64,000 nucleotides of DNA from Paraspadella gotoi. Its lineage: Eukaryota > Animalia > Chaetognatha. A program made the position numbers and the translations under genes. The notes below the pieces were generated by a model, which searched no databases, was not told the origin of the DNA, and saw nothing but the letters and a program-made list of their open reading frames with translations. The stretch covers positions 1,177,576-1,241,575 of the forward strand of contig JBJCIZ010000028.1 in the NCBI GenBank assembly GCA_051294375.1. Reading direction: 5' to 3'. How positions within the stretch are numbered: position 1 is the stretch's first letter; each line of letters starts with the position of its first letter. Below are positions 43,469-46,400 of the stretch, in pieces.

Positions 43469-46400
43469 TCAAAAATCCGTCCACAAGACGCAGTTTTTGT
43501 TCTTGTCGCAAGAGGCGAACTTGGATCCGCTTGGGTGCCAATGACAAGCGACGACGGCGTGACTAGAGAAAAGACCAGAAACCCATACCTTTTTGTGTGT
43601 GTGAAAAAATGGAAGCGAGCGAAAAGGGGGGAGGGAAATGGGGGTGGCGGGTGGAGGGGGTTATCCCACGTTTGTCACCGAGCGGTGGTGGGGAATTGTT
43701 AGTGGGAAGGGGGTGGGAGAAGCGGCGTTAGTGAAGCCACTCACCTGTGCTCCTTCAAGACAGTCTCCAACTTGAGCGTCGTCGAGTTCCACACGTAGAT
43801 GTTGTCGTCCTGAGATCCGACGGTGACGTATTGACCGTCGGGAGAGAGGACAGCGCGGGTCCAGTCGCAGCAAGTCTTAAAGCCCTCGGAGCAGTAGGTC
43901 GAGCATACCTTGGATGAAAGTGTGTTAACTAGACTGTGTCAGTGTGTCGTCTCGACTACAGTGCAAGTAGACTTTCCCCAGACGTAATTTTAAATCACCC
44001 GATTAATCCTGTAGTCGATCATATTAAGAGTGTCGTATTGACTAAAGACTCACAAGTAGACCTTCCCCAGATCTAATTCTAAATCACCTGATTCATCCTG
44101 AGGTCGATCATCTTGACTGTGTCGTCTCGACTGCAGACCAACAAGTAGACCTTCCCCGGATGTAAGTCCAAACTGGTGACGCGACCCTGGACAGAAATCT
44201 CAGAGGAGGAGTTATCCGTCCGCGTGTCCCAGAACCGGACGCGTTTGTCGAAGTGGCCCGAGATGATGTTCGTTGCTGAAATTATTACACAGTATACACT
44301 TGTAACTAAATGAAGTCATTATTTACAAATATAGTTAATATCATCAAATATATACCAACTGCGTCGGAAGCGACGATGTCGTTGCACGAGGATCCGGCAA
44401 AGATGGTCCGGAAACAGGCTTTACTCCTCAGGTCCCAGAGCTTGAGCGTCCGGTCGTGAGAACCGGAAACGACTTTGGAGGAATCGCCGAGGAATTTGGC
44501 GGACATGACTTTGCCGCTGTGACCTTTCAAAGGAATGAAAGAAGAGAAAATTCATGATCCTAAATAAAGATGACATTCCTAACTAAACTGTTGTTCCTTA
44601 TGCAATAAAACATACAATTCAACATCCCAATTTCTGGATTTTTTTATCACCAAAATTTTTTTATTACCAAAATTTATTATAATTTATTATAATTTGTCAT
44701 ACCAAATTTCTGGACAACATTTGAAGTTGATTCTCGGGTTAAAAAGTCTTTAATATTAGGAGAATGAACCAAACAACAAAATGCAAATAATTTTAAGGTA
44801 CTACTACCACAAAATGTCATATGAAATTGGTACAACCAATATAAAAATTATCCATTCATTTAATAAATAAGCTATCTTGTCCCTGACTTTGGACAGGCTT
44901 TGGTGGTTTAAGGCCTCCATCACACTTACAAGATAATAACATAGCAGGTTTCTGCAAGCTTTCAATCAAGACTCTTTCACAGTCTAATTTATTCACTCCC
45001 AGTGAACCTGGCTTCCCTATCAATGAAGTGGTATAATATTTCAAAGAATGTTTCAATTGTATGAAAAGACCACTCCCTTATATTATACAGTTAAAGATGT
45101 TCCATAACAATTTATGATAATTACCACCATATGTAAATGAGCTTGCAGAACGAATCTCAGTTAGAATTTAGCTCTTACATACAAACTGACAAATCTAATA
45201 CAGAAGGCATCATATTATAAAATGAGGTACTATGGCAACGAGGGGACATGTGTGATGCCTGGGGTGTGAGGCATCTCCCAACAGCTGGCACTCAGGGCTT
45301 TGGACCTGCAGTGACCACCCCATGTCACGAGCGTGTTTATGCCGATACCATCACACTTTAACCAGCGTGATCGTGAGGGGATTGAACCCGGAACTCACGG
45401 TTGGTGAACGAGTACTGAGCTGTCCAAGCCAATGGGACAAGCTGAGTTTTCACCAAGCTATACGGGAGGTGAATTTAGGATTCGCCACTCATGCCCCCCC
45501 CCAAGACAGCACACTGGGGTCCTCAAGCCCAGAGTGATTGTCTTGAGAGCAGACGGACTCATTGTCATAGAGAGCGAGCGAGCGAGAATTAGGGCATAGG
45601 TGTGGGATGCATACCCTTAAGCAATGATGTGAGCGATGGTACACAGCGGTTGCGTGTTCGATAGTAGGGCTCACCACTTATGGCAACGGGGGGACATGTG
45701 TGATACCTGGGGTGTGAGGCATCTCCCAACAGCTGGCGCTCAGGGCTTTGGACCTGCAGTGACCACCCCATGTCACTGGCTTGTTTATGCCGACACCATC
45801 ACACTTTAACCAGCATGACCGTGAGGGGATTGAACCCGGAACTCACAGTTGGTGAACGAGTACTTAGCTGTCCAAGCCAATGGGACGAGCTGAGTTTTCA
45901 CCAAGCTATACGGGAGGCGAATTTAGGATTCGCCACAGTACCCCTTTTTTGTAACCAGAAAACTACTAGACCAAATTTATTATGAACGATCCCTATGTGA
46001 ATTACAAATAGAACTATCGAGGCGAATTTCAATATTTGACTCCTGAGCCGAGATATGGAATATTAAAATTCGCCTCGATAGTTCCATTTATATCGTCATT
46101 AGGACTCTCAATGTAAAATTTCATGAAATTCGATCAGGTAGTTTGGTAGGAACAGATTCTGGTCACAAAAAAGGGGTACCAACATTTTATAATATCATCG
46201 ACGACGACAACAACAACAACGAAAACCAACGATCGACAGCAAACGAATTATCACGAAAATCGCAATATTGTTGTAAAATAAAATTATGACTTTCCTTTCA
46301 CAATTTGCTCGAATTCTTGGTGAATGGTTTACGATACGAAGCCTTCTGTAGTTTCGATTAGCCTCCTCGGACGAATGAGTACAATTTATCCGTGAGAGAG

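Follow-up and report, generated by a model that had tools for sequence, protein, structure and literature searches.

A miniature LTR element within an intron of an ATG16-family gene

The stretch analysed here, hereafter the window, comprises 64,000 nucleotides of the chaetognath Paraspadella gotoi (contig JBJCIZ010000028.1, positions 1,177,576 to 1,241,575). On its minus strand, within an intron of an ATG16-family gene and in the sense orientation of that gene, lies a 707-bp retroelement (45231-45937) in which the order long terminal repeat (LTR), primer-binding site (PBS), interior, polypurine tract (PPT), LTR is present. The intron (46414-44524, minus strand; exon joint placed by eye) runs from GT to AG in phase 1 over about 1.9 kb. 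The initial annotation of the window had recognised the element and a promoter motif of the RNA polymerase III (Pol III) type in its LTRs. It overlooked a twister fold directly downstream of the B box, and it is this fold that carries the novelty of the element and changes its likely mechanism. Judging from the sequence we favour, with some reserve, a reading in which a non-coding miniature LTR retrotransposon, equipped in each LTR with an A/B box and a type-P5 twister, likely replicates in a retrozyme-like manner through a self-cleaved, circularised 448-nt RNA with the aid of a Gypsy-type partner.

All features of the element given below are on the minus strand. The 5′ LTR (45679-45937) and the 3′ LTR (45231-45489) both measure 259 bp, as had been proposed, and end in TG...TA, not TG...CA. 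They differ at 14 positions (10 transitions and 4 transversions), close to the earlier estimate of roughly a dozen; at 5.4% divergence the copy is aged and may no longer cut well. The 3′ LTR of this copy begins AG, and at the position concerned, 45489, the entire contig depth in all four sequencing runs mapped carries the letter of the other LTR. A 7-bp hairpin opens the 5′ LTR (45916-45934; folding z −2.45 on 43 nt). Such a hairpin had been described for each LTR; it is perfect in the 5′ LTR, but has a mismatch at 45470 in the 3′ LTR. The interior of 189 bp (45490-45678) holds no protein gene, only short stop-to-stop frames. At its beginning, 2 nt past the 5′ LTR, stands a tRNA-Trp-like PBS that starts TGG (45664-45676), and at its end, 4 nt ahead of the 3′ LTR, a G9 PPT (45494-45502). 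Interior, G9 tract and the letters at 45648-45676 are as the initial annotation had them.

The 4-bp GTAC duplication, likewise reported before, stands at 45938-45941 on the 5′ side of the element and at 45227-45230 on its 3′ side. Self-comparison and contigs place the insertion inside a host repeat with inverted ends that resembles a miniature inverted-repeat transposable element (45199-46350). The uninterrupted arm of the inverted repeat hosting the element has a single GTAC, the equivalent of an empty site, and contigs in four of the four runs mapped join the left flank to that arm, so that the duplication can be taken as a true insertion footprint. The host repeat has TA-flanked inverted ends and internal inverted repeats (46003-46092, 45938-46179), and its depth is high in all four runs.

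Contigs matching the stretch or part of it were found in 11 sequencing runs, nine of them from one organism. Those of four runs from three studies were mapped on the stretch; one of the four is possibly the stretch's own source, and one, X9, was guessed to be RNA, has a depth profile like that of the DNA runs, and was not used for expression. Contig depths are not copy numbers, and the letter variants considered are 40 of 181. At 45937 contigs leave the LTR into unrelated sequence in numbers of 81, 58, 80 and 14 in the four runs (agreement 0.43-0.46), and at 45678 they do so in numbers of 57, 43 and 57 in the three DNA runs. Summed depth in run X1 is 44-51 over unique flank, about 1,200-2,300 in mid-interior and 58,000-110,000 over the 5′ LTR; bins 45088-45181 have no cover in runs X3 and X9. 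These sharp contig exits, together with the contrast in depth, show that the family is dispersed, has sharp ends and comprises far more LTRs than copies of this interior, and an LTR depth so far above that of the interior is as expected with many solo LTRs. Ten contigs of run X3 diverge at 45648; other interiors keep an extended primer block up to that position and diverge beyond it, which suggests subfamilies. The flank consensus beside the LTR ends (45678/45937) is AT-rich and often resembles ATAT, a hint that target sites of the RYRY type, such as GTAC, are preferred.

The same evidence bears on whether the repeats might be pseudo-LTRs of a Penelope-like (non-LTR) element, or the product of a local duplication. 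Penelope-like elements do carry ribozymes in pseudo-LTRs and were once mistaken for non-autonomous LTR elements (PMC8557442). Nevertheless, we give this explanation hardly any credence: the PBS 2 nt past the 5′ LTR, the G9 tract, the 4-bp duplication with its empty-site equivalent, and dozens of contigs exiting at the same two end positions all speak against it. Metazoan non-LTR retrozymes are described as having no LTRs, PBS or PPT (PMC7761336), and the presence of PBS, PPT and sharp ends sets the element apart from these as well as from Penelope-like pseudo-LTRs.

Twister folds in both LTRs

An Rfam scan made without a twister prompt found twister in both LTRs, with 25.5 bits (E 0.0078) for RF03160 and 20.3 bits (E 0.15) for RF02684, whose alignment handles P3 as an insertion. 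In each LTR the parts follow the type-P5 order: a 6-bp P5, a UAAA linker, P2, GA with the T1 strand, and a short P1, followed 3′ by UAA containing the scissile bond, the GC of T2, a 7-bp P3, and P4 with a 10-nt loop (helix names after PMC5408937). In the 5′ LTR the fold occupies 45732-45814, with P5 at 45814-45809/45737-45732, P2 at 45804-45801/45784-45781, the conserved G at 45800, a minimal P1 at 45795-45788, P3 at 45778-45757 and P4/L4 at 45756-45741; the predicted cut lies between 45787 and 45786, between U and A. The fold of the 3′ LTR (45284-45366; RF02684, 20.3 bits) has its predicted cut between 45339 and 45338, again between U and A. In both LTRs 18 of 18 core nucleotides and the closing G-C are present, and pairing checks give 3/4 for P2 in the 5′ LTR and 4/4 in the 3′ LTR, 3/3 for P4, 3/3 for T1 and 2/2 for T2. 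The likeness to the type-P5 twister (RF02684) covers the order of elements and the core, stems P2 and P4, the two pseudoknots and, among the optional parts, P3 and P5, whereas P1 is cut down to 8 nt, the score is under the Rfam cut-off and cleavage is predicted. The type-P5 class reportedly comes from Roth et al. 2014. A type-P1 reading, suggested by the best Rfam match, was rejected: its L1 strand is unable to form T1, and the P5 order meets every pair.

Pseudoknot T1 has A-U in place of the consensus C-G, with both sides changed. This variant is natural, since Rfam-passing phage twisters show the same swap: in one pattern scan of phage, 17 of 64 loci pass the pairing checks and 47 fail, and of 20 of those 64 run on Rfam, seven exceed the curated P5 cut-off. 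Type P5 with a P3 stem was found in 22 of 31 phage loci by pattern scan and pairing checks. Within the family itself, four twister-stem positions differ between the two LTRs of this copy, and at these the other LTR's letter, with which a Watson-Crick pair is kept, accounts for 68-99% of contig depth across the three DNA runs and for 52-99% in X9. The dominance of the pairing letter at all four positions makes the family look more intact than this aged copy.

Several points tell against a working ribozyme at the heart of the proposed mechanism. Both Rfam scores are under the curated cut-offs (25.5 versus 67.2 bits, and 20.3 versus 37.6), and the E-value rises to 0.41 when the whole window is scanned. 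Each LTR of this copy carries pair-breaking changes, at 45781 (P2) in the 5′ LTR and at 45346 (P1) and 45329 (P3) in the 3′ LTR, beside a wobble at 45330. P1 is far shorter than in phage P5 twisters: its 8 nt can form a 2-bp hairpin or an 8-bp self-duplex (−9.5 kcal/mol in the 5′ LTR), broken in the 3′ LTR, although twister is reported to cleave without P1 (PMC5408937). The nested twister fold is less stable than the minimum-energy fold without pseudoknots, at −20.1 versus −24.0 kcal/mol in the 5′ LTR and −14.7 versus −28.1 kcal/mol in the 3′ LTR. In favour of the fold, a type-P5 descriptor with pair checks picks out the two LTRs and no other site in the 64-kb window, and has no match in 150 simulated windows of that size, a result to be read knowing that the descriptor was written after the sequence was seen and tolerates one broken P2 pair. 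Similarly, the patterns of the phage scans fixed most core letters in the comparators, and the variation considered in the family is that of 40 of 181 variant rows.

A metagenome scan for the B box plus twister core gave seven loci, none resembling the element by BLASTN, and a scan of viral contigs for the LTR twister core gave none. One of the seven metagenome loci (L002:264-318, minus strand) is a type-P1 twister that is unrelated and has the same loop variant; it scores 44.1 bits (under the cut-off) and sits just downstream of a B-box-like motif. The type-P5 twisters on phage contigs (L128, L134, L145, L148, L155, L164, L165 and L187-L217) include the A-U pseudoknot set and the P3-stem set; two phage contigs have paired twister copies about 0.8-0.9 kb apart (L164/L165 and L185/L186).

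Only 300 bp from the element, in the same intron, lies a second repeat family of very high depth (44815-45145, minus strand; further copies at 27334-27590 and about 40547-40830, both plus strand), which exceeds the element in contig depth and has an upstream AATAAA. It contains a type-P5 twister fold of its own (44873-44935, minus strand; Rfam RF02684), in which 44882-44924 scores 25.6 bits (E 0.0024 in 441 nt); by eye, its P5 is 8 bp long, P3 is missing, P1 is palindromic and T2 is of the AC/GU variant. No Rfam match was found in the copy at 27290-27700. The family may represent a Penelope-like (Naiad) tail; Naiads are reported to lack canonical hammerheads (PMC8557442). Its twister and those of the LTRs share the core blocks GUGUGAUGG and GUCCAAAG.C, and no stems, and the similarity makes the family a possible donor of the LTR twister. 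Three twister folds, all sense, stand in the 1.9-kb intron (44524-46414, minus strand), so that the host pre-mRNA would contain them.

The neighbouring donor invites another explanation, in which the element would be an ordinary member of Helenus, a published group of TRIMs (miniature retrotransposons with terminal repeats), and its twister a passenger from another retroelement of the genome with no role in replication. The shared blocks would then mark the source, the pair-breaking changes in each LTR of this copy would be in keeping with it, and the published Helenus families indeed do without the twister core. However, the two twister families differ in P5, P1, P3, P4 and the GC pseudoknot and yet keep pairing and core (by eye), which points to selection on the fold after divergence, and the pairs are intact in most family contigs. 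For these reasons we regard a passenger twister as improbable.

Elsewhere in the window, an O-GlcNAc transferase (37499-42711, minus strand) is strongly diverged, with about 50% identity to other animals; among the 120 matches listed, its named relatives are animal except for one plant-labelled record. A 1275-codon frame (32804-36631, minus strand) has short proline/alanine-rich repeats and a coiled-coil-like end, and an array of tandem units of about 100 bp occupies 3732-4949. The WD40-coding exon end of the ATG16-family gene shows decayed tandem copies at 89-bp spacing (43941-44172, minus strand).

Promoter motif, primer site and predicted circular RNA

The tRNA-like module, a predicted Pol III promoter, lies directly upstream of the twister fold, at 45815-45886 in the 5′ LTR (A box 45879-45869, B box 45836-45826) and 45367-45438 in the 3′ LTR (A box 45431-45421, B box 45388-45378). 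The perfect B box attributed to each LTR, with a degenerate A box starting 43 nt upstream, was recovered in full. By eye, GGTTC and TRGCY stand at tRNA-like spacing, with YGG off its usual tRNA position. The Rfam scan of the element gave no tRNA match at E≤10, and ARAGORN at default settings called no tRNA in it. At a threshold of 60%, and only then, ARAGORN called a tRNA at the LTR; this relaxed tRNA-Thr call covers the twister domain, not the promoter module, and was set aside. Overall, the module is weaker than the initial annotation implied, and here too some observations oppose the reading we favour. The A box is a degenerate one, and a B box by itself is weak evidence, near chance level, its pattern occurring three times in the 64-kb window where 1.40 are expected (two of the three being the LTR pair). 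Within the element there is no T4 run on the transcribed strand, the first lying 9 nt outside. A missing T4 run is weak evidence as well; its consequence would be Pol III read-through into the 3′ LTR.

The degenerate A box and the failure to call a tRNA at default settings are also what one would expect if the element were a twister retrozyme transcribed by Pol II, either by read-through from host genes or from an LTR promoter, with the tRNA-like module as a relic. This copy is in sense orientation in a host intron, and retrozymes have been proposed to depend on read-through (PMC7761336). Against such a relic stand the perfect B box in both LTRs, its tRNA-like spacing from the TRGCY motif, and the finding that none of the 40 best-supported letter variants in family contigs falls within either box. 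Pol II transcription, which would alter the promoter step only, therefore strikes us as very improbable.

Homology of the primer site to tRNA-Trp over more than 18 nt, as initially claimed, holds in its proximal part: compared by eye with the 19 nt of bee tRNA-Trp printed in Fig. S2 of PMC10886601, 11 of the first 13 positions (45664-45676) pair and the next six fail, so that the homology is discontinuous. The distal 14 nt of the primer block (45648-45661), shared with other interiors up to 45648, are complementary to the tRNA T arm and form a T-arm motif that is not Trp-specific: among 115 phage loci (viral contigs) with the motif, 25 have an ARAGORN tRNA call, the tRNAs over the motif being Thr, Ala, Gly, His, Met or Arg, and no tRNA-Trp is among these calls. 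With no tRNA-Trp from viral contigs, the Trp isotype rests on 13 nt. The distal block presumably resembles metazoan tRNA-Trp too.

In the retrozyme-like scheme, transcription, probably by Pol III, would begin at the tRNA-like module, some 100 nt upstream of the first cut; in a tobacco retrozyme the transcription start also lies upstream of the ribozyme (PMC9695139). Self-cleavage once per LTR, between U and A, is predicted to release a 448-nt RNA (45339-45786) made up of one LTR plus the interior, a unit-length molecule with 5′-OH and cyclic-phosphate ends, no R region and no terminal redundancy. P1 would serve as the 2-bp hairpin, or its 8-nt self-complementary stretch might pair between the two LTRs. 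Plant retrozymes of the same layout form circles and undergo reverse transcription round the circle (PMC4918200). By analogy, a host ligase would close the circle, tRNA-Trp would prime reverse transcription round it, and the partner's integrase would insert either complete elements or solo LTRs. For the predicted circle the folding energy is −156.4 kcal/mol, compared with −138.4 ± 6.4 for 60 shuffles (z −2.8), an excess that would lend the retrozyme reading weak support. To be counted on the other side is that the cleavage, the circles, transcription by Pol III and the partner are predictions.

The main rival to this scheme also grants the ribozyme activity, but only in making the 3′ end. If the ribozyme of the 5′ LTR were misfolded in the nascent RNA, the transcript would extend from the tRNA-like start as far as the 3′ LTR cut, would keep about 100 nt of terminal redundancy and could proceed by ordinary LTR strand transfer, with no circle. 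An element without a T4 terminator needs a 3′-end signal, the nested twister fold has competitors of greater stability, and the Rfam P1-model match itself uses an alternative pairing. On the other hand, both LTRs are identical at the start, the P5-closed domain would be complete before the downstream RNA is made, which favours both cuts, and plant retrozyme transcripts are described as fully cut at the 5′ LTR (PMC9695139). We judge cleavage confined to the 3′ LTR to be unlikely, although it deserves more consideration than the other alternatives, and retain cleavage in both LTRs as the preferred reading.

Relation to known elements and significance

The initial annotation had proposed an animal TRIM family with a tRNA-type promoter. 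The dispersed TRIM, the A and B boxes, the 4-bp duplication and the Trp-like primer site all bear this out, but the design had already been published as Helenus (TRIMp3; Kojima 2024, PMC10886601), which is known from six animal phyla, is of the tRNA-type Pol III kind and makes 4-bp duplications in animals. Some wasp families of Helenus use tRNA-Trp priming, and a Gypsy partner has been proposed (PMC10886601). Like Helenus, the element is a short non-coding LTR element (707 bp, compared with 311-1263 bp) with PBS and PPT, an LTR containing TRGCY and GGTTC boxes, a primer of Trp type like that of the Synergus families, and a 4-bp duplication as in animal Helenus (GTAC, read from this one copy). 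In the Helenus families compared, however, the tRNA-like part lies near the LTR 3′ end, whereas here it takes up the 5′ half and is followed by the ribozyme. The Helenus paper does not mention twister (PMC10886601), and in the Helenus consensus file we found no twister-core motif in context and no LTR-start or PBS motif of the element, although FASTA line breaks may hide some. Membership in Helenus is likely, with agreement in most features and not in all, the less certain points being the YGG of the Helenus A box and the resemblance of the LTR to tRNA or SINE2. The element is Helenus-like in its promoter motif and, by prediction, LTR-retrozyme-like in its RNA processing.

With plant LTR retrozymes it shares a non-coding LTR structure, a predicted self-cleaving motif per LTR, PBS, PPT, 4-bp duplication and solo LTRs, as well as two cuts, here predicted, that leave an RNA without R region (PMC4918200; PMC9695139). 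Those elements have type III hammerheads, tRNA-Met primers, units of 600-1000 nt and circles that have been shown (PMC4918200; PMC9695139), whereas this one has a twister, a Trp-like primer site, a predicted unit of 448 nt, a tRNA-like promoter motif and an animal host. Rfam gives no hammerhead match on the element at E≤10, and by the definition of the retrozyme family it falls outside that family. The twister T-variants of Perere-3/RTE likewise tie the ribozyme to an animal retroelement, but are of type P1 and stand once per copy at the 5′ end of non-LTR elements (PMC8501958), in contrast to type P5 in both LTRs here. Cassandra and Ajax TRIMs also carry a Pol III promoter motif of small-RNA type in the LTR; theirs is 5S-derived, and Rfam gives no 5S match here at E≤10.

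A TRIM with a tRNA-type promoter in an animal is thus a known design, and the twister fold in each LTR appears to be the new part. In the available portions of the literature, LTR retrozymes carry hammerheads and are mainly from plants, and animal retrozymes are without LTRs, PBS or PPT (PMC7761336; bioRxiv 10.64898/2026.07.22.740005; PMC6765202). Twister has been reported in viroid-like circles (bioRxiv 10.1101/2022.07.19.500677), and the parts available of four further papers (PMC12859917, PMC5680766, PMC11722881, PMC10085705) add nothing on this question. In the literature searched we found no twister-bearing LTR element; one may be on record in the alignments of Roth et al. 2014, in subscription papers, or in Repbase or Dfam. 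We put forward tentatively, as a possibility somewhat short of an even chance, that this is the first LTR-type retrozyme of an animal and the first built on twister: a Pol III-driven TRIM without terminal redundancy that would pass through a viroid-sized circle of 448 nt, possibly by palindromic P1 pairing of its LTRs, and whose ribozyme would have been borrowed from a Penelope-like tail of the same genome.

Twister ribozymes are widespread, but what they do biologically is largely an open question, and the animal cases on record that we found are in non-LTR elements. The prediction made here is exact, naming two cut sites and a 448-nt product, and is cheap to test. If the element cuts and circularises, animals would have arrived independently at the retrozyme strategy, using a different class of ribozyme. 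The element would then illustrate by what means a TRIM driven by Pol III can set the ends of its RNA with neither a terminator nor an R region, and it would add a genome-encoded source of viroid-sized circles.

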